In this document: positions 23,266 to 63,457 of the stretch, in pieces
How the letters are laid out: each line of letters begins with the position of its first letter
Numbering within the stretch: the first letter of the stretch is position 1
Source: a virus
Length of the DNA: 64,000 nt
Strand: one strand, 5' to 3'
IMG/VR virus record: IMGVR_UViG_3300029131_000181
Translations under genes and position numbers: made by a program
Notes under the pieces: model-generated
The model's database searches: none
The model's input: the letters and a program-made list of their open reading frames with translations, nothing else
Told to the model about the DNA's origin: nothing

Positions 23266-23290
23266 ACAGAATCCTCCTTAAAATAAACAG

Positions 23291-23368: not shown

Positions 23369-23399
23369 TTGCGAAAAACTCAAGGCAAATTTCAATAAC

Positions 23400-23789: not shown

Positions 23790-23809
23790 TAACTTCTACC
23801 TCGCTGATT

Positions 23810-24270: not shown

Positions 24271-24353
24271 GACCTAGCAGCTTGGCCAACGGTATAGAAT
24301 GCATGTATAATATATGTATGAAATGATACTACATAACTGTCGGAGGAATCTTT

Positions 24354-24758: not shown

Positions 24759-24844
24759 AAAAATACGACATTTGTATTCCCATCTGTGCCGGTGAACATA
24801 CCGAACATGAAATAGCGATATTTTTTCATGATATGCTCCCACCA

Positions 24845-26862: not shown

Positions 26863-27955
26863 CGCCTTGCTTCCTCCTTTTTCTGATAAAAATTCTCTGA
26901 TAAACTGCAGAAAGCTGCACGCCATCAGGGCTTACCGAAAAGTCGCTCCTTCCTCTTTTAACAACTTTTGGTGACATCTTATCTCTTAATGCACCAGAGC
27001 CGGAGATTGTTACGCCATCCGCCTTGAAGAACTTAAAGCCAAGGCTTGTATAATCTTTATCGGCTCTGCAAGGCGTATCATCGAACATGGAACCACCAAC
27101 AATCTCAAACTGCTCCGGATTATACTTATCCAAAAAAGTGATAGGCACGCCCATAACGCCTTCATAGTCCACCGGAATATTCGCAACCCTATCCACATTG
27201 ATGGCCATGTAGTTATCATAGCGGGGGTAGCGCTCTTCCACGTCCGGCAGAGGGTTTCCGTCATCGTCATAGTACCGCTGCCAGAGAATCAGTTTCTCGT
27301 GGCGCTTCTGGATGTCGAGGTTAGTAAACCATCTTGTTAGACCGTTGATTTTCTTTGTTATTCCATTGGGGGTATCAAACTCGGATGGTGAGCTATAACC
27401 AATCCACACTTTGTTTTCTTTCAGAAGTGGAAAAAACTCTTTGTATGTAATGGCGTTCTTATTCCCGATAATCAGGAACTTTTTGCCGTGCTGCATCAGT
27501 GTGCCAACATACTCACGGAATAAGCTGAATGGCGGATTGGTCACCACGATATCACTTTCATCCAGCAAGTCAAGGCATTCCTTGCTCCGGAAATCGCCGT
27601 TGCCTTCCAGCAGGGTTTTTACACCGACTTCCACATCATTATCATCTCCGCCCTCGTACTCCATCTTGTAGGTTGGTTCGGTGTGGTCATAGTGCGTAGA
27701 AATCAGCTTCTTTAAGCCAAGTTCTGCAAAGTTCAGGTGAAAATACCGCCAGAAAGCGGACCATGTCGGGTCGTCACAGTTGCAGAATACAACCTTGCCT
27801 GCGAAATGCTTCTTGTAGTGCCGCAATTCCTCTGCGACATCCTCGATTCTGGTGTAGAACTCATCATTCTTCGCGTCCTTCGCCTTATGAAGGTTATCGT
27901 TCTTTGCCATGTCTATATCTCCCAATAAAAAATCCAGCACCGAATTACTCAGCAC
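26846..27955 (-). CDS. DNA methyltransferase (N6-adenine/N4-cytosine class, NPPF motif)
   Basis: DEFYTR ... FCNCDDP ... TNPPFS motifs. Confidence 0.8.
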   Translation of the reverse strand: MLSNSVLDFLLGDIDMAKNDNLHKAKDAKNDEFYTRIEDVAEELRHYKKHFAGKVVFCNCDDPTWSAFWRYFHLNFAELGLKKLISTHYDHTEPTYKMEYEGGDDNDVEVGVKTLLEGNGDFRSKECLDLLDESDIVVTNPPFSLFREYVGTLMQHGKKFLIIGNKNAITYKEFFPLLKENKVWIGYSSPSEFDTPNGITKKINGLTRWFTNLDIQKRHEKLILWQRYYDDDGNPLPDVEERYPRYDNYMAINVDRVANIPVDYEGVMGVPITFLDKYNPEQFEIVGGSMFDDTPCRADKDYTSLGFKFFKADGVTISGSGALRDKMSPKVVKRGRSDFSVSPDGVQLSAVYQRIFIRKRRKQGDEGTK

Positions 27956-29813
27956 TGGATGTATTTTCCGTATTACAATGACCGCATGATGTTTTCTTGT
28001 TTTCTACAAGACTTTGGGTTATCGCAAAGCATTCGTTTCCGCAATCACATTGACATTTCCATCGAGCATGACCGTTTTGGCTTCCTGCTCTCTCAATGAC
28101 CTTTAGCTTACCAAAGTGCATATTAGCTAAATCGTAAGTTCTTCCTTTTTTGACGAACTTATCGCGTGATGGATTTGCTTTCAAAAAGGCATCTGCTTCC
28201 TCTTCTGTCATGCTTTCGTATTCATTGGCAAATAACCAATGATATCCTCCGGCAACTGTACGTAGCTTGTTGCAGCAGTTCAAGATAGGCGAACCGCCGC
28301 TAATCCCGTATTTAAGAGAAGCCTCTTTTGCTGTAGAAAATCTCTCTTTTGTTTCAACGCAAATCACACTCTTGAAGTGTTTTTGTTTATAGCATTCAGG
28401 GCAGTTATGCCCGTATACTCTATCGGCTATTATCATCTTGTAGGAATGACCGTTTTTGCATTTCCACCAGCATTTTTCTGCAGACCCGGATGAGAAATAT
28501 TCGGGCTTCAAATTCTTGTTTTTTTCGTAATCCCATTCAGCAACAATTTCAGGATGTTCTGTAGCAAGGTTGTTCTTTTCGTTCCGTCTTCTTTTGCCTG
28601 TTGTACAAACAGGACATGTTGCGTTTTCTTTTGCTCTGCCATTGATGGGTGCTTCCCATTTATGCCCGCACTTAGAGCAAATCCAATGAACCATTTCTGA
28701 GCTAGATGATGACACCATCATCGGGTCAATGCCTACATTCAGTTCGTAGTCCCATTCTTTCAGGAGTTCCGGATGCCGTCCGCCCATACTTCGTTCAGCT
28801 TTGTAATCTTTGTATTGACGATAGATGTCTTTTGAATCCTTTTGTGTATCAATGTTAGGTTCAGAAACGCCAAGCATCTCTAAGCATTGGCGAATTGCTG
28901 CGTCGAGCGTTGCGTGCCCTCTATTGTTTTCTCTGATGATATTCTCGCTATTACGAATTTCCTGAAGCCCATGCTCGCGAATACGAATTATCCGAATTCC
29001 ATTCTGCTTGCATTTTTCGGACTTTTCTTCGTCATTTTTCACTCTTTTCTCATCAGAATGGTATCGAACACCATCGTATTCTACTGCAGTGCGAATGGAG
29101 GGGATGTAAATGTCCAGCTCTTTTCCAATAACTTTCTTGTTTCCAATAACAGCCTCTGAAAAATACTTTTTTGCATAATACGCTACTGCTTGTTCTTGGA
29201 ACGAGGTCTGTCCTTTATCGATAGTGCTGCATATCGGGCAACTCTTGATACGCTGGATGTAATGATATACGCTTGCCTGCCATTCCGTGCCACAAGCAGA
29301 GCATTTCCACCATACAACAATATTGCTTCCTTGTGTCAGCATACTGACATCTACGTCCTTATTTTTTGCAAAGTCATAGTCTTGCATAGCTTCTGCATTA
29401 TCTACAAGCATTTTCGAAGCTTCGGTAATGTGTTTGCAACAACCGCAAGACTTCACTTTTCCCCGCAGCAAAGAAGAGCGATAAGCAACAAATTCTTTTC
29501 CGCAGCTACACATACAGTTATAACGAATGTTTCTATGCCCCGTGCTTCCAATCGCATCTTCTGCCAAAGAAATAACTTTGATACCGTTGTGTTCTTCGCC
29601 AACCAAATCCTGGTATGTACGTTTACGGTCTTTACCTCGGCAGTCTTTACACTTTAACCCTTTCAAGAGCGCGTCGATACCAATTATCATTGTGTTTCCG
29701 CAGCAGTTACATTTCACCAAATAGGTATCTGCTTTTGAATTAGAGCCGGGGATAGTTTCGAAAACTGTTAAATCTCCGTATGTTTTGCCTGTTCTATTTA
29801 TTTTCGCCGCCAT
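27945..29813 (-). CDS. zinc-ribbon repeat protein with internal Vsr/DUF559-like nuclease motif (paralogue of 17284..18807)
   Basis: Multiple C-x2-C...C-x2-C ribbons (KCNCCGN...CKDCRG; WKCSACGTEW...CPICS; CWWKCKNGH...CPECY). AVEYDGVRYHSDEKRVKNDEEKSEKCKQNGIRIIRIRE matches the Vsr/DUF559 pattern. Stop overlaps the MTase start. Confidence 0.65.
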   Translation of the reverse strand: MAAKINRTGKTYGDLTVFETIPGSNSKADTYLVKCNCCGNTMIIGIDALLKGLKCKDCRGKDRKRTYQDLVGEEHNGIKVISLAEDAIGSTGHRNIRYNCMCSCGKEFVAYRSSLLRGKVKSCGCCKHITEASKMLVDNAEAMQDYDFAKNKDVDVSMLTQGSNIVVWWKCSACGTEWQASVYHYIQRIKSCPICSTIDKGQTSFQEQAVAYYAKKYFSEAVIGNKKVIGKELDIYIPSIRTAVEYDGVRYHSDEKRVKNDEEKSEKCKQNGIRIIRIREHGLQEIRNSENIIRENNRGHATLDAAIRQCLEMLGVSEPNIDTQKDSKDIYRQYKDYKAERSMGGRHPELLKEWDYELNVGIDPMMVSSSSSEMVHWICSKCGHKWEAPINGRAKENATCPVCTTGKRRRNEKNNLATEHPEIVAEWDYEKNKNLKPEYFSSGSAEKCWWKCKNGHSYKMIIADRVYGHNCPECYKQKHFKSVICVETKERFSTAKEASLKYGISGGSPILNCCNKLRTVAGGYHWLFANEYESMTEEEADAFLKANPSRDKFVKKGRTYDLANMHFGKLKVIERAGSQNGHARWKCQCDCGNECFAITQSLVENKKTSCGHCNTENTSSAE

Positions 29814-32042: not shown

Positions 32043-32462
32043 ATGCAAATGTTCGTCAATAATAACCTGTCATATGGTAGAGGTTATGTTTACAATATTC
32101 AATATCATATTGTGTGGTGTACAAAGTACAGAAAACCAGTTTTGATAAACGAAACAGAACAATCGCTAAAAGAGTCTCTGCAGCAGACCGCCGAAACCAT
32201 AAAAATCAATATTGTAGAAATGGAATGCATGCCTGACCATATTCACCTGTTGGTGGAGTGTTCACCGCAGCATTTTATCCCGGATATGATAAAAGTGCTT
32301 AAAGGCAACAGTGCAAGAGCTATTTTTATCGCCAATCCGGACTTGAAGAAGCAACTTTGGGGCGGGCATCTTTGGAACCCAAGCTACTTTATTGCAACCG
32401 TCAGTGATAACACGCGCAAACAAGTACAAGAATACATTGCATCTCAAAAAATAAGAAACTGA
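32043..32462 (+). CDS. tnpA: IS200/IS605 Y1 HUH transposase TnpA
   Basis: HUH motif PDHIHLLV. Catalytic Tyr region NPSYFIATV. 139 aa. Confidence 0.85.
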   Translation: MQMFVNNNLSYGRGYVYNIQYHIVWCTKYRKPVLINETEQSLKESLQQTAETIKINIVEMECMPDHIHLLVECSPQHFIPDMIKVLKGNSARAIFIANPDLKKQLWGGHLWNPSYFIATVSDNTRKQVQEYIASQKIRN

Positions 32463-32480
32463 TGAAAGGGGGGCTTCGCA

Positions 32481-33812
32481 GTGAAAATCACTTCCAGCTA
32501 TGCTGTGGAAATCAAAAAGCAGAAAATGTTCGACAATACTATAAAGATTTATCGCGAAGCCGTTTCTTTCTTGATTGGTTGTTTTAACAAAGAATGGGAT
32601 TCTATTCAAAAAGTAGAGGGTGCCAAATCTCGAAAGAGTTTTGCCGAGAAGTTAATTCATACTACAAAATACAGCACTGCTAAATATGATTTCGATGCCA
32701 AGTTTTATAAGTTCCCTAGTTACCTGCGCAGAGCGGCTATTCAAGCAGCACTCGGCTCTGTAAGCAGCTACTACAGTAGCCATAAGAACTGGGAAGCAAA
32801 CGGCAAGGTTGACAGGGAGCCAAAACTTCAATGCGATAGATTTTGCTTCCCGGCTTTTTATAAGACCGTTATGTATGAGGAAAGCAACAAACCAAACCAG
32901 TGCTATCTGAAGCTGTATAAAAACAATGACTGGGTTTGGGTTCCTATCGCAATGCGTGCCACCGATGTCAAATACATCACGAAATACTGGTCACATTGCG
33001 AAAAGAGTGCTCCTGCACTCGAAAAGAAGTACGGGAAGTATTTCCTACGCTTTGCCTTCGAGGAAGAGGTAAAACTCTCCGAAACTGAAATTCAAGACAG
33101 GCGTATCTGCGCTGTAGACCTTGGTCTCAATACTGACGCCGTGTGCAGCATCATGACTGCCGATGGAACTGTCCTTGCAAGAAAATTTATCAATTTTGCA
33201 AGTGAAAAAGACCATCTGTATCATGTGCTCAACCGTATTAAGCGTAAGCAAAGAGAACATGGACCTAAGAGTGCTGCTGCTATGTGGCGTTACGCCAAAG
33301 CCTTGAATAACGATATAGCGAAAAAGGTTGCTGCTGCGATTACTGAATTTGCTGTGCTTTATTCTGTAGATGTGATTGTTTTTGAACATTTGTCATTTAC
33401 AGGCAAAAAGCACGGTGGCAGTAAGGCACAGAAGCTGTCGATGTGGAAGCGTAATTCCATACAGGATTATGTGGAACACAAGGCGCACCGCTGCGGTATC
33501 CGGATTTCGCGTATCTGTGCTTGGGGGACAAGCAAACTCGCCTTTGATGGCAGTGGTGCTCTCAAGCGTGATGAAACCAATCGTGCCCTTGCAACGTTTG
33601 CAAGCGGCAAACAATACAACTGCGACCTAAGTGCGAGCTACAATATTGGCGCTCGCTACTTTGTCAGAGAGTTGCTAAAACCCTTGCCAGCGATGGTAAG
33701 GTCTCAGCTTTCGGCTAATGTTCCGGATGTTGAGCGTAGAATCCAAGTTACACTTGCCACGCTTAAAGTTCTGTATCCTGAGCTTAAAAAACTCAGTACA
33801 CAGGCAGCGTAA
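32481..33812 (+). CDS. tnpB: TnpB (OMEGA RNA-guided endonuclease)
   Basis: RuvC-I CAVDLGLNTDAV, RuvC-II VIVFEHLSF, RuvC-III NCDLSASYNIGARY, CxxC-type Zn region. Confidence 0.85.
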   Translation: MKITSSYAVEIKKQKMFDNTIKIYREAVSFLIGCFNKEWDSIQKVEGAKSRKSFAEKLIHTTKYSTAKYDFDAKFYKFPSYLRRAAIQAALGSVSSYYSSHKNWEANGKVDREPKLQCDRFCFPAFYKTVMYEESNKPNQCYLKLYKNNDWVWVPIAMRATDVKYITKYWSHCEKSAPALEKKYGKYFLRFAFEEEVKLSETEIQDRRICAVDLGLNTDAVCSIMTADGTVLARKFINFASEKDHLYHVLNRIKRKQREHGPKSAAAMWRYAKALNNDIAKKVAAAITEFAVLYSVDVIVFEHLSFTGKKHGGSKAQKLSMWKRNSIQDYVEHKAHRCGIRISRICAWGTSKLAFDGSGALKRDETNRALATFASGKQYNCDLSASYNIGARYFVRELLKPLPAMVRSQLSANVPDVERRIQVTLATLKVLYPELKKLSTQAA

Positions 33813-43570: not shown

Positions 43571-43689
43571 AGGGCACTTCTTCCTTCCGTCTCAAAGACA
43601 ATTTGCCGGGACTGTCTCCCGTTGCCCGCTGCTCGCCGCGTGGAGGCTGTCTTTTGGAGCAGCTGCGCGGACAAAACCGCGCTTTTGAG

Positions 43690-45384
43690 TTACATCTCTG
43701 CGTTAAACAGGTTGCGGAGCTTGTAGGTGATATCCTCGCTGTTGCCGACGATAGCTGCCGCTTCGTTGATGGAAGCGAGCTCCGAAAGACTATCCGCTGC
43801 GTAGTTGTAGCTGATGGTGTAAATGGGGATATCCATACCGGCAATGATGTTCTTCGTATCGGAGAAGCCATATCCGGTATTGTTGTCACCGTCCGTGAGC
43901 ACAAAGATGATGGGCGTGCAATTCCCACCCAGTTCCTGAGATTTCTGGTAGATGCGGTCCATAGCAACGCAAAGACCGTTGTACATTGCGGTGCTGCCGT
44001 TCGCATCGAGGGAGTTCACGGCACCCTTATACAGAGTTTTCTGGGTCAGAGAGAACTGGTTAATGGGCAGGTATTCCCTGACATCTGAATCAAAGCCAAT
44101 GATGCCGATATAGTTGTCGTCATTGATATACTGGATGGTGTTTATCATCGCGGTTTTCAGGGCATTCAGGGGTTCGCCGCGCATCGAGCCGGAAGTATCG
44201 ACAACGAACTCTGCCACAATAGGAATGCCTGAGTCCTTCTCTTCTTTCCAGACACTCTGAGCCTGTGCGATGGTGTTGCCATCGTATGCCTTGCCTGTAT
44301 AAGCATAGTCGTCAAGACCATTGAATCCGTCCTTGGTCGCCTCTGCCTGGTTCTGAGCGCAGAAGGAAACGAAGGCAGCAATAACTTCCTTCTTCTCCGC
44401 AGAGACATTCCCGATGGAATACAGAGGATTATCGTGCCGTACACCGAACGGGATGAACTCGTAGTTGCGCTGTAAGGTCGGGTCATTCTGATAAGACTGA
44501 TACTCCATGACAACGCCGTCCACGATGCCCTTGTCTGCCGACTGGACCATCTGCTGGGTCGTGAAGGATACGAGAGGGACGTTCGCTTGAAATTTCTGGA
44601 AATTCTCAACAGCAGCCGTATCGACAATCGTATCGCTGCCGCTGCTCGCAAGAGCCTCAAGCAGAAAATTAAGACCCGTAGCACTTGTGTAGGGGTTCGA
44701 GTATCCCATCATGAGTTTGCCATCGATGGTTGCGTTCAGAACGGAAGAAACAGACGCTTCACCGTATTCAGAGCGAAGCATATCCCCTGTCTTCTTTGAT
44801 ACGAGAATACCCGCCACATTGCCGACCAGACGGTCAGCCTCAACGGTCAATTCTACGCCCTCGTTCTTCACCAGCTCGCCAAAGAGCGTATTTGAGGGGG
44901 TATAGCACTCGGGCTGATACTTTCCCGTCGAGATGTACTCAGCCGCCGTACCGGACGGAATGGAGCGCAGGGAGACACTCATAGTCTTGTCTCCGGAAGT
45001 CTTGTTGTGCTGGGCGTTGAACTTCTTTGCCATTTCGGTCAGGAAAGAATCTGAGCCGGACTCTGCTGCTTTCTCGCCAGAGGAAAAGATTTCGATGTTC
45101 ACATCTCCGTTTCCTACGACCACGAATGGGTAGGAGGATTCAATGTCGGGCAGTTCATCCTTTGCATCAAGGAATTCAGAGACATCCAGCTGCTGAGGAT
45201 TGACCTTGACCTCCTGCACGCCGATGCGCTTCATCTTGCTGCTCAAGTTGGCATATGCCTGCTCGGACGTCATTGTACTAATGCTGACGTTTGAGTCCCT
45301 CATCACCGTCATCGAAAATACTCCGAGAACAACGCCTACCACAGCAATGGTTGCAACCACAGGGAAAATGTTCTTTTTTGTCAC
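43690..45384 (-). CDS. membrane-anchored vWA-domain protein (TerY-like)
   Basis: N-terminal TM helix. C-terminal von Willebrand A domain with MIDAS DTSGSM and later LTDGDNN. Confidence 0.75.
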   Translation of the reverse strand: MTKKNIFPVVATIAVVGVVLGVFSMTVMRDSNVSISTMTSEQAYANLSSKMKRIGVQEVKVNPQQLDVSEFLDAKDELPDIESSYPFVVVGNGDVNIEIFSSGEKAAESGSDSFLTEMAKKFNAQHNKTSGDKTMSVSLRSIPSGTAAEYISTGKYQPECYTPSNTLFGELVKNEGVELTVEADRLVGNVAGILVSKKTGDMLRSEYGEASVSSVLNATIDGKLMMGYSNPYTSATGLNFLLEALASSGSDTIVDTAAVENFQKFQANVPLVSFTTQQMVQSADKGIVDGVVMEYQSYQNDPTLQRNYEFIPFGVRHDNPLYSIGNVSAEKKEVIAAFVSFCAQNQAEATKDGFNGLDDYAYTGKAYDGNTIAQAQSVWKEEKDSGIPIVAEFVVDTSGSMRGEPLNALKTAMINTIQYINDDNYIGIIGFDSDVREYLPINQFSLTQKTLYKGAVNSLDANGSTAMYNGLCVAMDRIYQKSQELGGNCTPIIFVLTDGDNNTGYGFSDTKNIIAGMDIPIYTISYNYAADSLSELASINEAAAIVGNSEDITYKLRNLFNAEM

Positions 45385-52320: not shown

Positions 52321-52998
52321 TCATTGGGGATTCACTATCGGCGTTGCTGTTCTTGCTTGTGGGTCAATGGAATAAGTGGCGTCAATGCATACCGTATTGC
52401 TCCCTGTGTCTTTTCTCACAAAAACTGGCATTACAATTTCTGTGATGGATGTTGGGTCATTGCCATTCTCTGCATAGGTTTCGGCATATTCCTGCCAACG
52501 GATATCCACGTAGGCATTAGAATGTGGTTCCAGCAATGTTGTTCCTCCCGGGGTACACTCAAAGCCATTGATGGAGCCTTTATCCAGAATGACATCGATA
52601 CGGTCGTTGGTTTTGTTTTCGTAGTAGGCTTTTGCCGTATAGCCCATGAAACTATCAGAATAAAATCCGCAAACGACCATGCTGCAGGCATTATTGTCGA
52701 ACAGCACAATATCCGTGGGCTGAATCTCGTGTTTTGGTTCTGTCGCGTTCTCTTCACCTTTCGGATAAATCACAAAGTCATCATCGACAGGGTCATCACG
52801 ATTCGACACATCCCATTCTGCTTCATCATAGACATCGATGTGAAGTTTGACGGTATCGATGTCTTGCGGTTTCACTCCATAGATTTCCAGTCCTGCTTTA
52901 TCCCACGAAACGACCTCGGTGGTTTTCACTCCTGGTCCAATTTCCGGGAACCAACTGGTATCTGCCGGGATTCCATAAAATTTGTGCGTAGGGCACAC
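52321..52998 (-). pseudogene. lipoprotein gene, 3' portion (split by the IscB element)
   Basis: About 60% identical to the C-terminal 225 aa of the intact paralogue 55365..56444 (for example YPKGEENATEPKHEIQPTD; GSINGFECTPG). Lacks signal peptide and start context. Confidence 0.6.
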
Positions 52999-53106
52999 CG
53001 TCTACAGTCGTTTGCGACTTAGGCGGTGAGGAATGCGCTAACCAAGATTTGATTTGAGGTAAACTTAGTTAACGCAAATACCCTGCTACTCCTTTCTTTG
53101 AATGAT

Positions 53107-54504
53107 TTAAGATACTTTTTCCCATGCGGGATGTATGGAATCTGCTGCTTTTACAATTTTGAGTTTTTTAAGGCTCGCGGATTTTTGACCGTTTTTTGCG
53201 GGTGCTTTGAATTCTACATTTACGGCACCCTTTTTATTGGTATGAGTGCCATGCACAATGAGAACTTTTCCGTTGAGAGAGACTAAATCACCCGGATTAA
53301 GGTTTACCTTTTTGCGTAATAGAGCGCGATGCCCTGCGTATGTCCTCTTGCCACGATATTTGTGCAGGTTTTCCGAATCCTTTTTATGGCTGCGGCTGAT
53401 TCTACCGTTGAAGAGTTTTTTTCCGGTAGCTATTTCTCCTGTACGAATGTCAATGTAGCGAGAATCATAAAACTTTTCAAGGATGCGATTATTACGCCTT
53501 ACCTTTTCATAATGTTCAAACGTACAGCGGCAGTTTGGATGAAACTCGCCCATTGCATATGCATCATTATTATGACTCTTTTCAAGATGAAGCGCGATAC
53601 GTTTTTCTTTTGTCATTGCGCCATAAGTGACGGTGACAAAATCTTTTCCAAAAGCAGCATAGAGTTCATTGACAATTTGCCACCTAACGGTGTTCATAAA
53701 AGCCGCACCGGAAAGGTCGGCAAACTTTACATTTTCTCCGAAGCCATAAAGCTTACCGCTTTTTTGGTGATTGGCAGGCGTATGGCACTTTTCGCATACC
53801 GTTAGAAGTTCGTCCAGACTGTTGCCGTGACGACCTTTCCAGTAGAACATATGATGCATATGTAAAATCGCACCTTCTGTAGCTTTACGCCCACAAACCT
53901 TACAGACATAGTTATCGCGGTAAAATACCGCTTCCCGCAAGGTTGCCAAGTTGTAGCGGGGACCTTTCTGGTAGTCTACACCTTCCGGTTTTGATTCGCC
54001 TTTCTGGATGGCTTGCAGCAACATTGTGTCGAAAGAACCAACCTCAACCGTTGCATGAGTAATGGGCATTACCGCACAATACATCTTAACAACGTTGACA
54101 TTGAGTTCTTTCTTATGTCTCAAAGATGGAGCAAGCCAACTCTCGCCGCGTTTGCGATTATCGAAACGCGGTTTACGGTAGCGCAGTCTGTTTCTTCGGG
54201 AACGACGCATCTTGCGACAATCATCGTGATGTTCCTTCTCATCCTGTAATGTATCATACTGCGCAGATACATACTCGTGAGATTGACTTTTCACACTGAT
54301 GCCGATGTAGTTGTAGCCAACATCCTCACAGATTTCGATGGGTTGTGTGTTTGTTTTGCTGTCATACAGCAGCTGGATGGTAAAAGGATGATGCTTAACG
54401 ATTTTTGCTTTTCCGTCTTTCAAGAGGCGGCGTACCTTGCCAAGACGGAAGGTAGGCATTAAGCGTTCACCACTGTTGCTGAGAACGCAAACGCAAGTGC
54501 TCAT
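53107..54504 (-). CDS. iscB: IscB (OMEGA RNA-guided nuclease, Cas9 ancestor)
   Basis: N-terminal PLMP-domain motif (GERLMPTFRLGKVRRLL). HNH CKVCGRK...HMHHMFYWKGRHGNSLDELLTVCEKCH. RuvC-III NNDAYAMGEF. 465 aa. Confidence 0.85.
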   Translation of the reverse strand: MSTCVCVLSNSGERLMPTFRLGKVRRLLKDGKAKIVKHHPFTIQLLYDSKTNTQPIEICEDVGYNYIGISVKSQSHEYVSAQYDTLQDEKEHHDDCRKMRRSRRNRLRYRKPRFDNRKRGESWLAPSLRHKKELNVNVVKMYCAVMPITHATVEVGSFDTMLLQAIQKGESKPEGVDYQKGPRYNLATLREAVFYRDNYVCKVCGRKATEGAILHMHHMFYWKGRHGNSLDELLTVCEKCHTPANHQKSGKLYGFGENVKFADLSGAAFMNTVRWQIVNELYAAFGKDFVTVTYGAMTKEKRIALHLEKSHNNDAYAMGEFHPNCRCTFEHYEKVRRNNRILEKFYDSRYIDIRTGEIATGKKLFNGRISRSHKKDSENLHKYRGKRTYAGHRALLRKKVNLNPGDLVSLNGKVLIVHGTHTNKKGAVNVEFKAPAKNGQKSASLKKLKIVKAADSIHPAWEKVS

Positions 54505-54883
54505 GCAAGATACTCCTTTCGTTAAATAGTAATGAAACTATAAGTCAGGGCTTGCGCCCCGTGGTCCACTTCGCCAATGTTATGCACTGTTTTAGCCTTT
54601 CGGCATGGCTTACGCACTTCTCCTACCCTTAGAGATGTTTAACGTAATATGTATCAACGGCTTGCACCATTGACACATACGCTGCCCGCAGAGCCCGACA
54701 CTTGTGGAGCATATCGGGGTGCCTATATTATTAGTACACAACGTAGTTTTCCCCACTGCCGGAGCAATGGGCTTAGGCTAATCAACTGGGCTTACAGGTT
54801 GCCCCGCAAGCCCCGTCTATAACCGGTGAACCGGTTTAGGCGGGGTTGTTGACTCAAGGACGAGCTGCTTGTGATAGCGCAAA
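54505..54883 (-). ncRNA. IscB ωRNA (candidate), encoded immediately upstream of iscB
   Basis: About 370 bp ORF-free GC-rich region with many hairpins (GGGGCTTGCGGGGC..., CCACGGGGCGCAAGCCC...). The architecture is as expected for IscB. The guide would lie at the 54850-54883 end. Confidence 0.5.
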
Positions 54884-55220
54884 GAGTTTTGTCATCCGTT
54901 TTATTTTGGAAATCAACGGTCCAGTAGTAGCCATAGCTGTCATCATAACCCACGTTCTGCAAGATGATGGTACAGGTATCGTTGTCGGCAATCGTCTGTG
55001 GCTGGAAACTCTCATCGAACTGGATGTCGGGTTCAGCCGTTGCATTATCGGCAGCACTACTTGCAGTACTCGTTGAAGAGTCGCTGGTGCTTTCCTCGGG
55101 GGATGCAGCATCAGATGTAGCTGCACTGCTGGCAGCAGTACTGGTAGTGTTAGAGCTGCTACAGGCGGCCAGGGAAAGGGCAAGCAAAGCCGAAAGTGCT
55201 AATGATACAACCTTTTTCAT
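54884..55220 (-). pseudogene. lipoprotein gene, 5' portion (signal peptide + N-terminal domain), interrupted by the IscB element
   Basis: MKKVVSLALSALLALSLAAC lipobox. Homologous to the paralogue up to ...FQNKTDDKTL, then reads into the IS and terminates. Confidence 0.6.
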
Positions 55221-55364
55221 GATTTTCTCCTTTTTTCTTTGTATAAGGCTATTATACATCAAAAGCGCTTCGGCATTTTACTTTTCCAGAACGAAACCTT
55301 TATTTACAAAGTTGCAAACGAAGCCTGGGAAAGTTAATAATTTTAATCGCAGGAGGGCGTCAAA

Positions 55365-56444
55365 TTATTCCGATGTTGTCACGGAATTTGTCTGAGGGTT
55401 AATAGTGAAAGTCTCATCTACATAGATGTCCCGAGTGCTGGAATTGTTTATAACGATTGGCATCACCATTTTGGTGACAGAGGTGGGGTCTTTACCGTTG
55501 GCCTCATAAGTATCTAAATAATCGTAATAGTAGATGTCTACATAGGCATTAGTGTGCGCATCAATTCCCATTGTATCTGTTTCAGGGAAGCACTCAAAGC
55601 CATTTATGGAACCTCCACTTCTAAAGGCAAACATGATTTCTTTATCCGTCTTGTTTTCTATGTAAGCTTTGGCCGTATAACCGTGTAGGCCGTTGGGGTC
55701 AAATCCACAAATCATCAGGGCGCAAGCGTCATTGTCGGCCAGTACGAGGTCTGTGGGTTGGGTTTCATGCTTTGGCTCGGTTGCGTTTTCTTCCCCTTTT
55801 GGATAAACCACGAAATCGTCATCAACAAAGTCATGCCGTGGGATAACATCATAATCTAATTCGTTATAGACATCGAGATAAAAACTTACCGTATTGATAT
55901 CCTGCGGATTGATGTTATAAATTTTAAGCCCGGAACTTTCCCAATGATGAATCTCCGTTTCCTCTTGACCAGGTTCAACACTCGTAAGCCAAAGGCTCGC
56001 ACCCACGCCATTCAATGTGCAGTCATCAAACGAGTAACCGAGTTTTTTATCTGATGTCTTATTCTTGAAATAAAGCTTCCAATAATAGCCGTAATCATCA
56101 TCGTAACCAACGCTCTGCAAGATAATGGTGCATTCTTCATTATCAACAAGTGTCTGTGCCTGGAAATCATTATCGTATGTAATTTTGGGTTCGGGGGACG
56201 GCGTAGGTAAATCGCTGCCTGTGCCGTTCCACACCCTTTCATATGTTTTGCCGTCTTCTGTAGTATATGTCTCTCCTACTTTAATCCCGTCAGGGCTGTA
56301 ATCTTGCGTGCTATTGGAAGTGCTATTTGACGAAGCACTTGACTTGGATTCACTTGAGGCTGCAGCAGAACTATCTGCCTTGCCACAGGCAGCCAACGAG
56401 AGGACGAGCAAAGTCGAAAGTGCTAATGATACAACCTTTTTCAT
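55365..56444 (-). CDS. lipoprotein (intact paralogue of the disrupted gene)
   Basis: Signal peptide plus LAAC lipobox. Start refined to MKKVV with AAGGAGAA RBS. 359 aa. Confidence 0.7.
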   Translation of the reverse strand: MKKVVSLALSTLLVLSLAACGKADSSAAASSESKSSASSNSTSNSTQDYSPDGIKVGETYTTEDGKTYERVWNGTGSDLPTPSPEPKITYDNDFQAQTLVDNEECTIILQSVGYDDDYGYYWKLYFKNKTSDKKLGYSFDDCTLNGVGASLWLTSVEPGQEETEIHHWESSGLKIYNINPQDINTVSFYLDVYNELDYDVIPRHDFVDDDFVVYPKGEENATEPKHETQPTDLVLADNDACALMICGFDPNGLHGYTAKAYIENKTDKEIMFAFRSGGSINGFECFPETDTMGIDAHTNAYVDIYYYDYLDTYEANGKDPTSVTKMVMPIVINNSSTRDIYVDETFTINPQTNSVTTSE

Positions 56445-57111: not shown

Positions 57112-60100
57112 TTATCCAAATAACTCATCCAGCTTTTCGCTCAACGTCCCATCCTTTGCATAAGGCAATGCATCGCACATACGAAAGTTATACTGCTTTC
57201 CGTTATGCTCCTCAGAGAACCCAAGAATATAGTTGGTTGCAATGCGATAAATAATTTCGGACGGAGCCAGACCGTAGACCTGCTTTTCAAAGATGTGTTC
57301 GAGCCGCTCCTTGGAGTTCGGGAACGCAGCTTTCATGCCTTCGCTCTGGTACAGACGCTTCACGATTTCGGTAATGTACAGGCCCGATTTCATGTACAGG
57401 TCAATAAAGGTCTTGTCCGGGTCATTAAAGCATCCGGGATTTTCTTCTTCCAAAAGCGATACCATCTTTGCCACGGTTGCTTTCGGGGTAAAGATTTGGT
57501 TCGTGCGCTGCGGCGGAATGTAGTCGAAGATGTCCTTTTCGTTCGCCGGGTCAAAATAGTTTGCCAGTTCACGCTTTAACCGCAGGAACTCTTTGATGGA
57601 ATCATCAAACACGACTTCATCAAACAGCTTCCCGTCAAAGTGCTTCGTTTCGCCTGTGGCGGTATCCTTGTAATCACCGCCATCGCGCAGGAAACGGAAC
57701 TGCTCCAGCGTGATGCTGGTGACTTCTTGGAAAACTTCATCGGGAACGATTTGGTCGAAGTTGGCAAGAGTGGTATCCTCTGTGCCATAGGCCATCAGAA
57801 ATGACGGTATCGTGCGGGCAAAACCGCGTAGATGGTCGCGGATGGTATCTTCCACATCGTTCTTTTTGCGTTCCTCGATTTGTGTCTCATAGCTGCGGAC
57901 AGTCTCTTTGGCGGCATCTTCCACGAAGCTGCTGACCGTATCATTCAAAGCTGTTTTCAGCTTTTCAGTAGCCTCTGCCTTTTTCTGGTCGAATTCCTGA
58001 TTGATTTTTGCCTGTTCGTGGGGCGCAGCAGCAGCCAACTGCTCATGGCGTTCTTTTTCGATTTGGTTGGTTTCGATACGATAGTCGCCGTAAGTCCGCG
58101 CCACCAAACGGTCCGCATCCTCGCCCAGCTTCTTCTCTACACGCTTGGCATCCGATGCCTTAATTTCCGAGTCATAATTGGAGGTGGCAGCAGCCACGAT
58201 GGGTTTAACAGCCTGCGCCTTGAAAGCCTCCTGCAACGCTTCCAGCGCCTTATCCTTGGGCTGGTTGTCAACGGCGACTTTATCAATAGCCTGCGTGACC
58301 TGCTCGCTGACAGTCTCATAGATTTTATCGCCAAAAATATCATCGGCCAAACCGATAACATAGCCCTCATCTACTTCGACATCGCCGTTTTCATCAACAT
58401 GGACGCGGTCCAAATCTTCTTTCTTGACTTCCTGCTTTTTCGGTTCGTCCACAGGGGTGAACTTTGTAATAATGTTCACAACCGCCTGCGGAGCACCGAA
58501 GATGTTGGAAATGTTCTGGAACAGATAATTGGACATAAATCCGCGATTCACAACTTCTGTGGAGCGAATCTTTCGCGGAATAGAAAGTACCTTTTCGGCA
58601 TCCAGTTCCACCATTTCGCCGTCTTCATCCTCGCCGATGACCGGGAAGAAGTTCAGCAGTTCCTTGATGTGCTTTTTGCGGGTTTCGGTATCACCGCGAC
58701 CATCGGAAGTGCTGGCATACAGGTCGTTCGCGAACTCCTCAAAAATCATAAGAGTTCGCGCAGGGTCGAAGTCGAAGATATAAGCATTCTCCTTGCGGTA
58801 GAACTTGCCTTTGTCGTGGAACAAGCACGGATTCTGCGCACGGAACGCCGCCTGCATATACAGGGATGCACTCTTGATGCTGCTCAGCATCAGCACAGCA
58901 GTCCATTCTGGAATCGTAACGCCCGTGGTGAGCTGTCCGACAGACAGTGTAATTGTCTTGTCGTTCTGGGCGATAGCCTCGGTCACGCTGTCAAACGCTT
59001 TCTTGGCAGAATCATCATCGTTCAATCTACCGTCACCCACTGCCGCGACGACCTTGTAATCCTTGAAAACAGGATGGTTGTTCAGCTTGCGGGCTAGAGC
59101 CTTGGCGCTGTCCACACGGTTCAGCAGCCAAAGCGTATGCTTTAATTCATCGCGTAATTCCGGTGTGGAGAACGGGAACTTAGTCTGTGTAGTCAGCGCA
59201 TCAAGGAACTTGTCCACAGCGCTGTCATGCACAAAGTTTCCGGCCTGATTGACTGCAAAAAACTCATTTAGGTCAAACGCCCATTCTTCTGTCTCGCCGT
59301 TGATTTCAATGCCCTGCTTCAGTTCATCCCGAACGACCTCGGACATCTGATAGGTGAACATATTGAGCTGCGGCAGATTCGCGTAGGGATTCTGCTCGCT
59401 CTGGTCACCCTGCCAATCGCGTTTTTTCTTCTGCTCGTCGGCATAGGTCCAGTTATAGATGGCGTCCTCTTTGAATTTTTCGCTGGCAATGGCCTTAAAC
59501 GGCGTGCCGGACAGATGCAGCGTAAAGTTGCGGTCAATATGGTCGAACGCCACATCCGTCTTGTAGGTATCTACGCCCTCGTGGGCTTCGTCAATAATCA
59601 GAACATCCCAATGAATGTCATTGACTTCTTTCAGCTTTTCAAATTCACCGCCAAAGTAAATGGAGCCTTTGAGGTCCTGCAAGCTGACGAACTCGATGCA
59701 CTTGTAGTCGTCGTTGTTCAGCATATCCAGATACTGATTGCGGCTCACAACAAAAGGCTTCCCCTGCAGGGAGCTGGTATCGCTCACAAACAGATACCCG
59801 GAATCGGGACCGAGGAACTTCTCGTAGTCGGAATACCACGAGTTTGCAATCGCAGGGCGGTTCGTCACGATAAGGACCGTGTCTGCGTCCATCTGTTTGC
59901 AAAGCTCATAGGCCGTAAGTGTTTTGCCGAAGCGCGGCTTTGCGTTCCAGAGGTATTCACCCTTGGTATGCAGGCGGCTGTAATTCAGCGTTTTCTCTAC
60001 CGCATCCTCCTGCTCCTCACGCAGATTATACGGGGTTGCGGCGGTCAGCGATTGCAAAATACCGCGATTCGCACGGAAATCATAGAAGTGGTTGCGGGAA

Positions 60101-60408
60101 ACAGGCCCCGTCACATGGAACCATTCGTTCTTGGGGTCGTTCTCAATGTTCAGCTTGCGCAGATAGCGGTGGAAATCTTTATCGGTAAATGTATCGCCGG
60201 AGCCATCCTCGAATGTAGCATTGCCGCGCCATTCTTCTTTGTATTCCACATCGGCAGTATGGGTCTGCTGGCTCAATCGCTTGTCTACATCCTGCTCGGT
60301 GTAGCCGATTTTCGTCCAACCGTTATGGCGGGCAATCTCAGGAGTGGTATAGGCATAAATCATCGGAACAACGCGGTCCGTTGTTTTGATGACGATTTTA
60401 GTGCTCAT
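57112..60408 (-). CDS. GIY-YIG nuclease + SF2 helicase fusion with C-terminal methyltransferase-N-half-like region (1098 aa)
   Basis: N-terminal PMIYAYTT...GWTKIGYTEQDVDKRL (GIY-YIG-like). Walker A KPRFGKT. DEAH LIIDEAHEG. C-terminal NQIFTPKATVAKMVSLL...DPDKTF and QVYGLAPSEIIYRIATNYIL resemble γ-class MTase motifs X, I and II. Confidence 0.7.
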   Translation of the reverse strand: MSTKIVIKTTDRVVPMIYAYTTPEIARHNGWTKIGYTEQDVDKRLSQQTHTADVEYKEEWRGNATFEDGSGDTFTDKDFHRYLRKLNIENDPKNEWFHVTGPVSRNHFYDFRANRGILQSLTAATPYNLREEQEDAVEKTLNYSRLHTKGEYLWNAKPRFGKTLTAYELCKQMDADTVLIVTNRPAIANSWYSDYEKFLGPDSGYLFVSDTSSLQGKPFVVSRNQYLDMLNNDDYKCIEFVSLQDLKGSIYFGGEFEKLKEVNDIHWDVLIIDEAHEGVDTYKTDVAFDHIDRNFTLHLSGTPFKAIASEKFKEDAIYNWTYADEQKKKRDWQGDQSEQNPYANLPQLNMFTYQMSEVVRDELKQGIEINGETEEWAFDLNEFFAVNQAGNFVHDSAVDKFLDALTTQTKFPFSTPELRDELKHTLWLLNRVDSAKALARKLNNHPVFKDYKVVAAVGDGRLNDDDSAKKAFDSVTEAIAQNDKTITLSVGQLTTGVTIPEWTAVLMLSSIKSASLYMQAAFRAQNPCLFHDKGKFYRKENAYIFDFDPARTLMIFEEFANDLYASTSDGRGDTETRKKHIKELLNFFPVIGEDEDGEMVELDAEKVLSIPRKIRSTEVVNRGFMSNYLFQNISNIFGAPQAVVNIITKFTPVDEPKKQEVKKEDLDRVHVDENGDVEVDEGYVIGLADDIFGDKIYETVSEQVTQAIDKVAVDNQPKDKALEALQEAFKAQAVKPIVAAATSNYDSEIKASDAKRVEKKLGEDADRLVARTYGDYRIETNQIEKERHEQLAAAAPHEQAKINQEFDQKKAEATEKLKTALNDTVSSFVEDAAKETVRSYETQIEERKKNDVEDTIRDHLRGFARTIPSFLMAYGTEDTTLANFDQIVPDEVFQEVTSITLEQFRFLRDGGDYKDTATGETKHFDGKLFDEVVFDDSIKEFLRLKRELANYFDPANEKDIFDYIPPQRTNQIFTPKATVAKMVSLLEEENPGCFNDPDKTFIDLYMKSGLYITEIVKRLYQSEGMKAAFPNSKERLEHIFEKQVYGLAPSEIIYRIATNYILGFSEEHNGKQYNFRMCDALPYAKDGTLSEKLDELFG

Positions 60409-60409
60409 A

Positions 60410-61438
60410 TTATGCCATCTCCTTTACATGAGATTCGATGAAGTCGATTTCCTGCTGTGAAAGACCATACTTCTTGTATAGTTGCTGGTCAATGTCGCGG
60501 ATGGAAGCCGACCAGTTAATGTCAGAGTTGGGGGTGAAATCTTGTAAAGGAACATTCTTCCATGCAGAAATCGATGTGTGCTGCGTAACTTTTAATGTCC
60601 CAAGCATTGCACGGCAAAACTTTGTCTTTATATATTTCACAACACGCTCTGCTTCATCAGAAGTTTCAAATCGTCCCATGCTGATGAATGTCTGTGTAAA
60701 TCCTACATTCGGGCCTTCAACATGAGGAGGATAAATTGCTTCACCAAATTTACCAATTCCGGTTGCTTCTGGCATGACCGCTTTGTAGTAATTCAAATTG
60801 GTTTTATTGTCTATATATTCTCGTTTAATGTACTTATAAACACGCGCATTATTTACTCGCCCAAGGATTGACACATATTCGCCATTAGCTGGTTTTTGAG
60901 AGTAGAACACTTCTGGAATAGAATCAAAGACATTGGTTTTTACTTCATATTCATTTCCCTTACTGAGTTTTGCCTTTAGTTGCGGATTTTCGTCATGCAT
61001 CAACTGTGTAAATTTATAAGCCACTGGCGAATACACTATTGTGCTAAAAGCAATAAAATCTTCCGCATGAAGTATCTTTTTTGCAATGCCGTTGAGTTCT
61101 GGTTCCTTAAAAAAGTGCTCTATAGGTCCGAAATCTTTTCGCTTGTCACGATAGGTAACTGCGACACCGCCTTTAATATCTGTGTTCGGGAAAATGCTTG
61201 CACTAAGCGGTCTATAGTACAAGACTTTATAATGTGGGTCAGAAAGCATTTTTCTATTCCACTTTTTATCGGTATCACCAGCATCGAACAAAAAACGTGC
61301 CGGATGAATCATTTCGACTACCGTTGCCACTTCGAAGCCAGATTCCAAGAAATAATTATAAACAGAAGGAGCCTTTGTATTATCACCAATACCCGTATCT
61401 TGATACGGAGGGTTGCCAATTGCATAATCGAACTTCAT
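60410..61438 (-). CDS. N6-adenine DNA methyltransferase C-terminal half (motif IV NPPY + target-recognition region)
   Basis: MKFDYAIGNPPYQDTG at the extreme N-terminus. No AdoMet-binding motif I in this ORF. AAAGGAGAAAAG RBS. Confidence 0.7.
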   Translation of the reverse strand: MKFDYAIGNPPYQDTGIGDNTKAPSVYNYFLESGFEVATVVEMIHPARFLFDAGDTDKKWNRKMLSDPHYKVLYYRPLSASIFPNTDIKGGVAVTYRDKRKDFGPIEHFFKEPELNGIAKKILHAEDFIAFSTIVYSPVAYKFTQLMHDENPQLKAKLSKGNEYEVKTNVFDSIPEVFYSQKPANGEYVSILGRVNNARVYKYIKREYIDNKTNLNYYKAVMPEATGIGKFGEAIYPPHVEGPNVGFTQTFISMGRFETSDEAERVVKYIKTKFCRAMLGTLKVTQHTSISAWKNVPLQDFTPNSDINWSASIRDIDQQLYKKYGLSQQEIDFIESHVKEMA

Positions 61439-61442
61439 ATCG

Positions 61443-62438
61443 TCACTTTTCTCCTTTCATTTGGTTGTAAGAAATTGTCCGCATAGCACGCCAATCACGG
61501 ATTTTACATTCGTATTTCTTATTTTGCTTAGCCGCCTCATCGAACAGTGTTTCCTGTTCAAAATCACTTGCAAACAGGGATAGCTGCTCGTAGTCGTCTG
61601 ATATGTACAGTTCTTTGCCCGGAATCGTCCCTTTTAGGCCGTCCATCTGCCATATGTTCCAGCAGATTACATTGGCAATCTGGTTCAGTTCCTTGGCAGT
61701 CGGCTCCCGCTGCCATCGCTCCTGCATATAGTCCACGAAGGTCATCAGCAGGTTGATACGGGCAACAAGCAGGTTGTCACCCTGATATTCGTAGCCGTAG
61801 GTACTTTCAAAGGCTCGCCGCGTCCATTTCAGCCAGTCAGCCTCATTATTGGTATTCTCGTTTACGACCCGCAGCTTTCTGTCCAGAATCCCAATTCTGT
61901 TTTCAATCGGAAGTTCTTCGCCGGTAGCGGCATCATAGCGGGATACCAAATAAGGGGCCTCGCCGCAGGTGATTTCCAGCCGCCGAGAATCAACATACCG
62001 CTGCCAATCCCGTTCTTTCTCAAAGTAAACAGGCTCTTTCGTTGGCTCCCAGTGTTCACCGTTCAGCGTATTAAATACGTTCTCGCGTCCAAACCAATCG
62101 TCATCGCATTTATTGTTCATATAGCAGACGACCCAAGAGGGCGTAAAGACCTCGGCTTTGGATTTCGTTCTTGCCGCCTGTTCTTCTTCCGCTTTCAAAA
62201 TGCGCGGCTGGATAAGATTGGCATATACCCCGGAAATCAGCTCCGGCGTGATTTGATTATCCTGCCGATAGCCATCGCCGTATCGTTCATAAGTATTTGT
62301 TGCCCAGATTATATTTTCACCTGTCGTCTTATCTTCCAGCAGAAACCGCATTGCCGTTCTGACCGGATAAGAATACAGGTCAATCAGTTTGCCCAGATGT
62401 GCCACCCCCGCGCAGCGCAGGAAGCAGCCAGAACCCAT
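61443..62438 (-). CDS. DNA methyltransferase N-terminal half (motifs X and I)
   Basis: KAEVFTPSWVVCYM (motif X FTP) and RRLEITCGEAPYLVS (motif I-like (D/E)xxCGxxxYL). The start codon is uncertain because a hairpin directly abuts ATG 62438. Confidence 0.55.
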   Translation of the reverse strand: MGSGCFLRCAGVAHLGKLIDLYSYPVRTAMRFLLEDKTTGENIIWATNTYERYGDGYRQDNQITPELISGVYANLIQPRILKAEEEQAARTKSKAEVFTPSWVVCYMNNKCDDDWFGRENVFNTLNGEHWEPTKEPVYFEKERDWQRYVDSRRLEITCGEAPYLVSRYDAATGEELPIENRIGILDRKLRVVNENTNNEADWLKWTRRAFESTYGYEYQGDNLLVARINLLMTFVDYMQERWQREPTAKELNQIANVICWNIWQMDGLKGTIPGKELYISDDYEQLSLFASDFEQETLFDEAAKQNKKYECKIRDWRAMRTISYNQMKGEK

Positions 62439-62440
62439 CC

Positions 62441-62480
62441 TTACGGAGTTCTTCTCCGTAAGGAAAGGGACGTCCCTTTC
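62441..62480. promoter_or_regulatory. hairpin CCTTACGGAG-N5-CTCCGTAAGG followed by the perfect 16 bp palindrome AAAGGGACGTCCCTTT
   Basis: Read directly from the sequence. Located immediately upstream of the MTase N-half ORF. Confidence 0.5.
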
Positions 62481-62695
62481 GCGCTGATTGTTATTTTTGC
62501 AAACGTTTCTTGCTATTTTATATGGCAGCCTTTCTCTTTAAGCTGCATTTCTGTTATTTGATATTTGCTTTTTATTGCTGTGCAGTTTCAAGCAGGTATC
62601 AAGCTCTTCGTTGAGATTGTATCGGCTGTGGTTCTTGAACTTGAAAATATTATAGCATATAGCACCGTTTCTCTCAACGCTTGTTTTATCGGCAC

Positions 62696-63421
62696 TCATC
62701 CGCCTTTAACTGTCTCAAACTCCAAAGTAATGGTATCCACGATACAAAAAGCCTGTGACCCGTATGGGGTTCCATCACGATAAGTAGAAAACGTATCACA
62801 GGAAAGTACTCCGCCTTCCAGATACACTTCTTTGACCGGCGTATGTCCTACCACTTGCAGATATTCGCCGCCGCGATACAAACGTTTTGCATTCTGATTT
62901 GGAGACAGCTGCGGGCGATACCAGATAGGAGAATCTGTTGCCCACATTGTTTCACAGCTCATTTGGTTGATAGCTTTGACAGCCGCGAGAACATTTTTTC
63001 GGTTCTGTGGTGCTACCCGGAGCTGAACAAAGAGATTTGCAAGGCCGCCGTGCATGAAAAGTGTTTTGTCAATTTTGTGGATATATGCAAGCTGACTTTT
63101 CTTTGGCAAGGCATTTGTCAACTTTTTAATTTCTTGACACACGAGTCCTCTCTTTTCCGGATGGAATCCGGTTTCCGGCTCTCCCCAAATGTAGCTCAGG
63201 TCATGGTTCCCGTAGCACCAGAGAGTATCTGGATGTTCCTTGGCAAACGTGATTGCGGTTTCATAGGTCTCCAGATACTGCGCATCATCATGTACCCCGA
63301 AATCATCTGCCAGGTCCATAAGACAGATAGCTTTGTCTGCAATGCCTTTTTTCATGATGGTATTTGCCTGCGCAAACATCCAGGGTTTCAAATGGCAATC
63401 TGGAATGACTAAGACCTTCAT
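62696..63421 (-). CDS. calcineurin-like metallophosphoesterase (Ser/Thr phosphatase-like)
   Basis: Motifs DCH (VIPDCHLKP), DLADDFG, GNHD, GH (VVGHTP). GAGAGGTG RBS. Confidence 0.75.
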   Translation of the reverse strand: MKVLVIPDCHLKPWMFAQANTIMKKGIADKAICLMDLADDFGVHDDAQYLETYETAITFAKEHPDTLWCYGNHDLSYIWGEPETGFHPEKRGLVCQEIKKLTNALPKKSQLAYIHKIDKTLFMHGGLANLFVQLRVAPQNRKNVLAAVKAINQMSCETMWATDSPIWYRPQLSPNQNAKRLYRGGEYLQVVGHTPVKEVYLEGGVLSCDTFSTYRDGTPYGSQAFCIVDTITLEFETVKGG

Positions 63422-63457
63422 GGCTCTTCACCTCTCTTTTTTGTGTTTACTATTTAG

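Follow-up and report, generated by a model that had tools for sequence, protein, structure and literature searches.

The IscB systems closest to the locus reported here are the ISGst element of Geobacillus stearothermophilus (Meers et al. 2023) and the elements of Altae-Tran et al. (2021), in which the ωRNA (HEARO) precedes iscB and the end of the ωRNA is also the end of the transposon. According to Meers et al. (10.1101/2023.03.14.532601), the HEARO region that lies upstream of iscB has the right end (RE) of the transposon as its boundary, the transposon/target-adjacent motif (TAM) lies 5′ of the left end (LE) and is common to TnpA and IscB, the elements tend to be oriented like the gene upstream of them, and tnpA lies near about 1.5% of iscB genes only. 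Here we analyzed a stretch of 64,000 nucleotides (nt) deposited as IMG/VR virus record IMGVR_UViG_3300029131_000181, the whole of which is called the window below. Positions 52977..54853 very probably hold a non-autonomous IS200/IS605-family (OMEGA) IscB-ωRNA element that was inserted in one lipoprotein gene, and this high confidence covers both the identity of the element and its insertion history. It has the same layout as the elements above and, like those of the ISGst type, a guide that adjoins the element from outside, an insertion without target duplication, subterminal hairpins at both ends, no tnpA in cis and the orientation of the upstream gene. It differs from them in being carried by a human-gut bacterium, in an ωRNA that looks like a mosaic, and in being known here from sequence alone. 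The element is an ordinary example of a known transposon family and brings no new principle, all its features being as in Altae-Tran et al. (2021) and Meers et al. (2023). What it offers is a compact uncharacterised IscB of 465 amino acids (aa) with a natural guide, a natural target, a naturally inferred TAM and exact transposon ends.

Two further groups of known systems were compared. The structurally solved OgeuIscB-ωRNA (7xht, 8csz, 8ctl, 7utn) has the same domain order, and its catalytic residues can be aligned with those of the window IscB, itself no more than a distant relative of the characterised IscBs (phmmer E about 1e-32 to OgeuIscB). OgeuIscB has 496 aa against 465 aa here, and identity is low outside the N-terminal PLMP/RuvC-I region. 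IS608 and ISDra2 likewise insert 3′ of a short specific motif without duplication and have LE and RE hairpins on the same strand. However, they carry tnpA together with TnpB and have the ωRNA at the 3′ end of tnpB, whereas the window element has IscB on the opposite strand and no tnpA.

Insertion into a lipoprotein gene

Read along the minus strand, the region consists of a lipoprotein gene (56444..55365), a 144-bp spacer, the start of a second lipoprotein gene at 55220, a stretch free of open reading frames (ORFs), iscB, a 130-nt non-coding stretch and an ORF ending at 52321. The features of the insertion are as follows.

55365..56444, minus strand: tandem paralogue lipoprotein, intact, 359 aa (ORF and alignment; 46–48% identical to the halves of its neighbour)
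54854..55220, minus strand: 5′ part of the split lipoprotein gene, 122 codons and a further 1 nt, encoding an apparent signal peptide and a putative LAAC lipobox (ORF list)
52977..54853, minus strand (iscB and ωRNA): complete, non-autonomous IscB element, very probably of the IS200/IS605 family (blastn break against contig L001; ends of similarity among relatives)
52321..52976, minus strand: 3′ part of the split lipoprotein gene, 2 nt plus 217 codons and a stop (in-frame reconstruction)

Joining the two flanks gave an in-frame gene of 1,023 nt encoding 340 aa, in which ...CCTTGA meets ATGGAATCC... (52976 onwards) and the codon A|AT for Asn is rebuilt. A database search with this reconstruction returned dozens of full-length orthologues of 333–340 aa spanning both halves. 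The uninterrupted orthologue P0001 has exactly 340 aa, is 98% identical to the reconstruction, represents a cluster of 2,348 sequences and reads CAITSSSSLNGIPADTSW across the junction position. Alignment of the reconstruction with the tandem paralogue across the junction (SSSSLNGIPADTSW against DDCTLNGVGA-SLW) also showed no gap at the junction.

The boundaries of the element were obtained by blastn against an empty-site contig, L001. Two blocks of the window abut in L001 at 10367|10368, and the match is broken in the window at 54854|52976. Because the blocks abut in L001 while in the window they lie apart by 52977..54853, the inserted element measures 1,877 bp. The flanks of L001 and the window are 100% identical over 28 nt on each side, and the window region of the 5′ lipoprotein part is 98.6% identical to L001 9940..10367. 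No base is duplicated at the junction and L001 is contiguous without repeated bases, which is the insertion without target-site duplication that marks the IS200/IS605 family. The last native bases before the element, placed by the empty-site orthologue, are ...CGTCCTTGA (54854). In an alignment, eight empty-site contigs run unbroken across the junction. The ends were further supported by 160 related IscB loci retrieved from metagenome and IMG/VR contigs: similarity begins at base 1 of the element in 128 of 161 matches, and in 108 of 128 it extends to the final base or the one before it.

The original prediction, made from the letters of the window, had proposed an IscB-ωRNA element within a single lipoprotein gene. 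The uninterrupted 340-aa gene of related genomes bears this out, and iscB, the ORF-free ωRNA region, the lipoprotein halves and the intact tandem paralogue at 55365..56444 are all real. The empty site that it suggested seeking in related genomes was found (P0001, L001), and its refuting case, that the halves are unrelated genes, fails on orthologues that span both. Several of its details had to be corrected. The left junction had been drawn after ...GATGACAAAACTC (about 54884), 30 nt too far 5′ of the true junction at 54854. The paralogue had been expected to place that junction within a few bp; it is about 47% identical, and we rejected it as an empty-site template because 46–48% identity cannot place a junction. 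The 3′ part had been started at 52998, where a GTG within the element end is only a mechanical ORF start, and native sequence in fact resumes at 52976. The paralogue had been put 300 bp away, and the distance from the start of the split gene to the stop of the paralogue is 144 bp.

The native coding sequence up to 54854 includes TLCAITSSSSL. The internal repeat of the lipoprotein (NKT...S[IL]NG) misleads simple alignment. This repeat, like the reading frames themselves, first hinted at native sequence running through CAITSSSSL. Both gene halves are still open. The ORF of the 5′ part continues for 20 extra codons into the ωRNA to a stop at 54792, and an in-frame TAG stands at 53002..53004, just within the element. 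For annotation this means that the 142-aa and 202/225-aa “lipoprotein” ORFs are pieces of one gene, and that host coding sequence takes up the 30 nt in front of the ωRNA scaffold.

The putative lipobox region MKKVVSLALSALLALSLAAC was read straight from the sequence (pattern L-[AS]-[GA]-C), and no Pfam family matched either lipoprotein. The lipoprotein family gave 83 matches down to 27% identity, with many gut-metagenome members and without an annotated function. Both lipoproteins have an internal two-fold repeat, ...C-x-[IM]-[IV]-...-GY-...-NKT-...-S-[IL]-NG....

ωRNA and guide

Two features lie between the start of the split gene and iscB.

54545..54853, minus strand: ωRNA scaffold, composed of the HEARO match 54561..54853 and a conserved terminal hairpin at 54546..54561
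54854..54869, minus strand: putative guide of 16 nt, AGCAGCTCGTCCTTGA, which is native coding sequence of the lipoprotein gene and adjoins the ωRNA scaffold on its 5′ side

A permissive Rfam scan of 54300..55400 (1.1 kb) identified HEARO (RF02033, the IscB ωRNA) at 54561..54853 on the minus strand, with 70.1 bits and an E value of 7.5e-14. The match extends over model positions 1–211 of 211, so that the covariance (Infernal) search proposed earlier as a check aligns the region as HEARO over the full model. It lies upstream of iscB, in the same orientation and 57 nt from the iscB ATG at 54504 (minus strand). Just 3′ of the match, the conserved GC hairpin at 54546..54561 probably closes the ωRNA.

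To describe the ωRNA, 57 distinct upstream regions, 70–87% identical to the window, were aligned and a consensus was calculated with RNAalifold. The consensus has 67 predicted pairs, 10 of which show compensatory (double) changes, and in the helix at alignment columns 155–163/173–180 four pairs are switched in 28 of the 57 sequences, and these changes support the secondary structure. The relatives vary by a 17-nt insertion in one hairpin, one of about 35 nt in another, and an alternative helix, CCCGA/TCGGG or CTTAC/GTGAG. In the window ωRNA one variable hairpin has its short form and another its long form, modules that are separate in other subgroups, and this ωRNA thus looks like a mosaic of two hairpin variants.

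The scaffold starts with GTCAACAACCCCGC, and the sequence upstream of this start is unrelated from site to site. The position of the guide follows from the scaffold start, and its length of 16 nt is the value from published IscB work. At this position the flanks are unrelated among 26 left-flank site clusters of relatives; in the window it falls in lipoprotein sequence, in agreement with the earlier expectation of a guide derived from the flank. In the empty allele, AGCAGCTCGTCCTTGA is followed directly by ATGGAA. With up to 3 mismatches allowed, the guide has no other match in the window, and the tandem paralogue is not matched. A 15-mer resembling the scaffold start (22039..22053, 2 mismatches) was dismissed as a chance match, with no HEARO signal and no IscB-like ORF adjoining it.

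The IscB protein

One gene lies within the element and encodes IscB, a nuclease of the kind ancestral to Cas9.

53107..54504, minus strand: iscB, 465 aa, with Pfam RRXRR and HNH domains and the ribosome-binding site AAAGGAG in front

Pfam matches were obtained for RRXRR (5e-46, residues 5–181) and HNH (9.7e-05, residues 201–243). The protein thus has the N-terminal PLMP/RRXRR domain, the split RuvC with inserted HNH and the size (about 400–500 aa) of an IscB, and it has no REC lobe. The phmmer comparison with solved structures gave 11hr (3.2e-33), OgeuIscB 7xht/8csz (3.6e-32) and 7utn, the best matches in the PDB all being IscB chains. Alignment to chain 11hr_A pairs EDVG with IDPG, VEVG with LELN, HMHH with HYHH and HNNDAY with HYLDAY, so that the RuvC-I Asp, the RuvC-II Glu, the HNH His pair and the RuvC-III His and Asp are aligned and conserved. 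The window IscB would probably, though by no means surely, be an active nuclease today. In total 2,711 IscB homologues were found, the best 92% identical. A search of genome contigs with IscB returned two loci only, both from one Lachnospiraceae metagenome-assembled genome.

Transposon ends and adjacent motif

By the TnpA convention, the top strand is the plus strand of the window, with LE at 52977 and RE at 54853. The ends comprise the following.

52977..53106, plus strand: non-coding end downstream of iscB, 130 nt (LE), with a subterminal hairpin at 52996..53028
54811..54845, plus strand: RE subterminal hairpin, 8 nt from the element tip, DNA fold z = -3.0
52971..52976, minus strand: putative TAM ATGGAA (TTCCAT on the plus strand), immediately 5′ of LE

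On the plus strand the layout is TTCCAT|LE ... RE|guide, with iscB on the opposite strand. The LE hairpin folds as DNA with z = -2.6 (plus strand) and -3.6 (minus strand) relative to shuffled controls, and the DNA of the RE hairpin also encodes, on the minus strand, the first ωRNA stem-loop. The stem base CCGTCTA...TAGGCGG is present on the same strand in both end hairpins (52998..53026 and 54813..54843) and is absent from the rest of the window. A subterminal hairpin at each end, both on one strand and without terminal inverted repeats, is the arrangement of IS200/IS605 elements. The LE hairpin lies about 19 nt from the cleavage site and the RE hairpin about 8–10 nt from the tip, and the hairpins of IS608 are spaced alike (about 19 nt and about 8–10 nt, respectively).

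The flanks of the relatives fell into 37 distinct combinations, and the motif was counted over 28 distinct flanks in 22 site clusters. On the iscB side, positions +1 to +5 were A in 27, T in 25, G in 25, G or A in 27 and A in 24 of the 28 flanks. A conserved motif of 4–5 nt beside LE, ATGRA (reverse complement T(C/T)CAT), as required of IS200/IS605 elements, is thus found at 22 independent site clusters. Variable flanks on the guide side together with a conserved opposite flank are the signature expected of a guide position and a TAM, to which we provisionally assign them. T(C/T)CAT is essentially equal to the TTCAT common to TnpA and IscB/TnpB in Geobacillus (Meers et al.). ATGGAA also fits NWRRNA, the OgeuIscB TAM given in PMC12660989, the TAM here being read from natural flanks.

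Some further features of these sites were observed. At related loci (L007–L166), ATGRA often falls where a gene starts or where one gene's stop meets the next one's start (stop|start). A reading frame of at least 60 codons begins at the flanking ATG or GTG in 8 of 22 sites, a raw count without a background expectation. The L031 and L046 sites have a clear Shine-Dalgarno sequence just ahead of the element, and several left flanks end in TGA. In L018/L029/L074 and in L014/L007/L033, IscB copies have one flank in common and the other different, which suggests either that copies of the element recombined or that metagenome assembly produced chimeras at the repeat.

Filled and empty alleles

The filled allele was also found in L002, a separate assembly that is 99.96% identical (1 mismatch in 2,477 nt) and contains both junctions, and in L003 and L004, short contigs from other samples that are 100% identical and contain the iscB-distal junction. 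Samples with the filled allele are ERZ28659946, ERZ914873 and ERZ19634686. An exact search of IMG/VR found the empty-site 28-mer in 7 contigs and the filled junction in 0, and in human-gut metagenomes the empty allele is widespread. A real population polymorphism of this kind would allow a direct trial of the published retention/homing model. The closest empty alleles found are 92–96% identical to the window over ±1 kb; because they are no closer than this, no age can be given for the insertion, and its earlier description as “dated” is unsupported.

Proposed mechanism and alternative explanations

The best-supported mechanism is the peel-and-paste and guided-homing model of Meers et al. Under this model, a Y1 (HUH) TnpA acting in trans would insert the single-stranded element immediately 3′ of TTCCAT on the plus strand, without target duplication. 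The element being co-oriented with the lipoprotein gene, host transcription would continue past the last native bases into the scaffold of the ωRNA and yield an ωRNA with a 5′ guide (about 16 nt, AGCAGCTCGTCCTTGA) of native lipoprotein sequence. The IscB-ωRNA complex would then be programmed to cut precisely this empty site, or else the donor joint that excision by TnpA leaves behind. It would target the empty site because the guide there directly adjoins ATGGAA; at the occupied allele the guide adjoins scaffold DNA instead of the motif, and this allele would therefore be protected. If the cut were then repaired with an occupied copy as template, the element would be regained, and its retention would be favoured. 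The boundaries of the element, the empty site without duplication, the conserved adjacent motif, the variable flanks on the guide side, an intact nuclease and a structured ωRNA are shown by the data, whereas in this scheme we infer transcription from a host promoter, the guide length of 16 nt, cleavage and a mobilising TnpA.

Several observations count against this explanation. The tnpA (Y1_Tnp) of an autonomous form is missing from 52977..54853, and none was found inside the IscB element among the related loci; the element is non-autonomous, like about 98.5% of iscB loci, and its family membership is unaffected. The window has a single Y1 transposase gene, at 32043..32462, and this is part of a separate element of the IS605 type. 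In IscB, the position aligned with the Asn of the HNH motif is occupied by Glu. The HEARO score of 70.1 bits is below the Rfam gathering score of 83, which is why a default scan of the whole window left HEARO unlisted and reported only an HDV-like ribozyme elsewhere; the loss of score falls in three enlarged variable hairpins, and Meers et al. (10.1101/2023.03.14.532601) called HEARO by a 15-bit cut-off and its position relative to iscB. A consensus σ70 promoter scan found none for the lipoprotein gene or the ωRNA, and the one sign of host-driven transcription is a TATAAT seen by eye at 55251..55256, conserved upstream of both paralogues. Finally, a second insertion site of the exact element was not found among the database matches, which leaves recent activity without support.

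One alternative is a stranded, non-functional relic that inserted once, lacks a partner transposase in the genome and now has the lipoprotein knockout as its sole effect. The lack of tnpA in cis, the dissimilar ends of the IS605 element in the window, the Glu at the HNH Asn position, the occurrence of the exact IscB protein at one site only and the distance of the closest relatives (at most 92% identical in protein and 87% in ωRNA) all fit with a relic. But the 465-aa ORF is full length with its RuvC and HNH catalytic residues conserved, the full HEARO architecture is kept, both end hairpins are intact, and both gene halves are open, so there is no sign of long decay. Moreover, 64 kb of genome are in view and a partner tnpA could lie elsewhere. 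We regard a relic as unlikely, though it deserves serious consideration. Far less probable is a reversible host switch of a surface lipoprotein by scarless TnpA excision, in which the truncated 142-aa lipoprotein might have a function of its own. IS200/IS605 excision is precise (Meers et al., 10.1101/2023.03.14.532601), the interrupted gene and its tandem paralogue, both for surface lipoproteins, lie in a highly variable region, and the 5′ fragment retains the apparent signal peptide and lipobox. Yet both alleles were not seen within one strain, the filled allele is rare (0 against 7 in IMG/VR), and IscB-ωRNA should cut a restored gene and so oppose switching.

We give almost no credence to the possibility that the halves are independent genes with an intergenic element, or that the junctions are an assembly artefact at a repeat. 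Assemblers do make chimeras at copies of insertion sequences, and recombined flanks occur in L018/L029/L074 and L014/L007/L033. However, dozens of 333–340-aa orthologues span both halves, 8 contigs are continuous across the junction, the joined flanks are in frame and gap-free at the junction relative to the paralogue, and the independent assembly L002 has both junctions. The reading as an IscB-ωRNA element inserted in one lipoprotein gene can be extended, more doubtfully, to a live gene drive: the two alleles would coexist in one gut species, and when strains exchange DNA the empty allele would be cut at AGCAGCTCGTCCTTGA|ATGGAA and converted to the filled one, while ATGRA may also steer insertions to stop|start junctions and start codons. 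We consider this extension rather improbable; if the steering were true, it would be an unrecognised effect on operon expression.

Other transposons

Two other elements of this kind are present in the window.

32043..33812, plus strand: separate IS605-type element with tnpA (Y1_Tnp 4e-41, 139 aa), then a 443-aa TnpB-like ORF (weak Cas12f1-like TNB match)
14728..15837, minus strand: stand-alone TnpB, 369 aa, with HTH_OrfB_IS605, OrfB_IS605 and Cas12f1-like TNB domains, the third OMEGA-type element in the 64 kb

The tnpA-tnpB element at 32043..33812 was rejected as a partner, its ends having no significant similarity to the IscB element; a copy of its tnpA 98% identical to 32043..32462 is present in L170. 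A TnpA-carrying element in the empty-site contig L001 (7390..9939) was rejected as well, with ends not significantly similar to those of the IscB element. It encodes a 133-aa Y1 TnpA and a 578-aa TnpB-like protein, has the hairpins CCCACGATT..AATCGTGGG, and appears to lie beside a TTAC-like motif, not TCCAT. It lies between the lipoprotein paralogues, where it stands in place of 26 nt of the window (55282..55307); therefore, different IS200/IS605 elements strike the same spot in different strains.

Genomic surroundings and host

About 30 surrounding ORFs were scanned with Pfam and PHROGs. They encode GmrSD, an EcoRI methylase and an Eco57I-type methylase, ResIII, SNF2 and UvrD helicases, a T5orf172-ResIII protein and three DUF4379 zinc-finger proteins, as well as the stand-alone TnpB, the IS605 tnpA-tnpB pair, a flotillin and, each encoded on hundreds of contigs, a VWA protein and a ComEC-like metallo-β-lactamase; the flotillin and the ComEC-like protein are of a housekeeping type. 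No phage structural or hallmark protein was found among these ORFs, and megablast of 52950..54900 gave no match in phage genomes, so the earlier naming of the locus as a phage-like element is unsupported. Rather than a phage, the surroundings look like a variable island, rich in restriction and defence genes, in the chromosome of a common human-gut bacterium.

Within this region, window 17284..29813 looks like a defence island. It contains a cluster of DUF4379 treble-clef zinc-finger genes (17284..18894, 19110..20180 and 27945..29813), near which GmrSD-HNH (24845..25981), DUF4238 (25978..26925) and an EcoRI-type adenine methylase (26846..27955) are encoded. Beside the lipoprotein pair, about 6.3 kb of the window (57116..63441) is missing from the empty-site contig L001 (5578..5585); this segment, a variable restriction/defence cassette, encodes the 1,098-aa T5orf172-ResIII protein and the Eco57I-type methylase. 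An HDV-F-prausnitzii ribozyme (RF02682) was detected at 43594..43663 on the minus strand (60.4 bits, the gathering score being 44, and E 1.2e-08), beginning 27 nt downstream of the stop of the VWA-domain ORF (43690..45384), and this match hints at a Faecalibacterium-like host.

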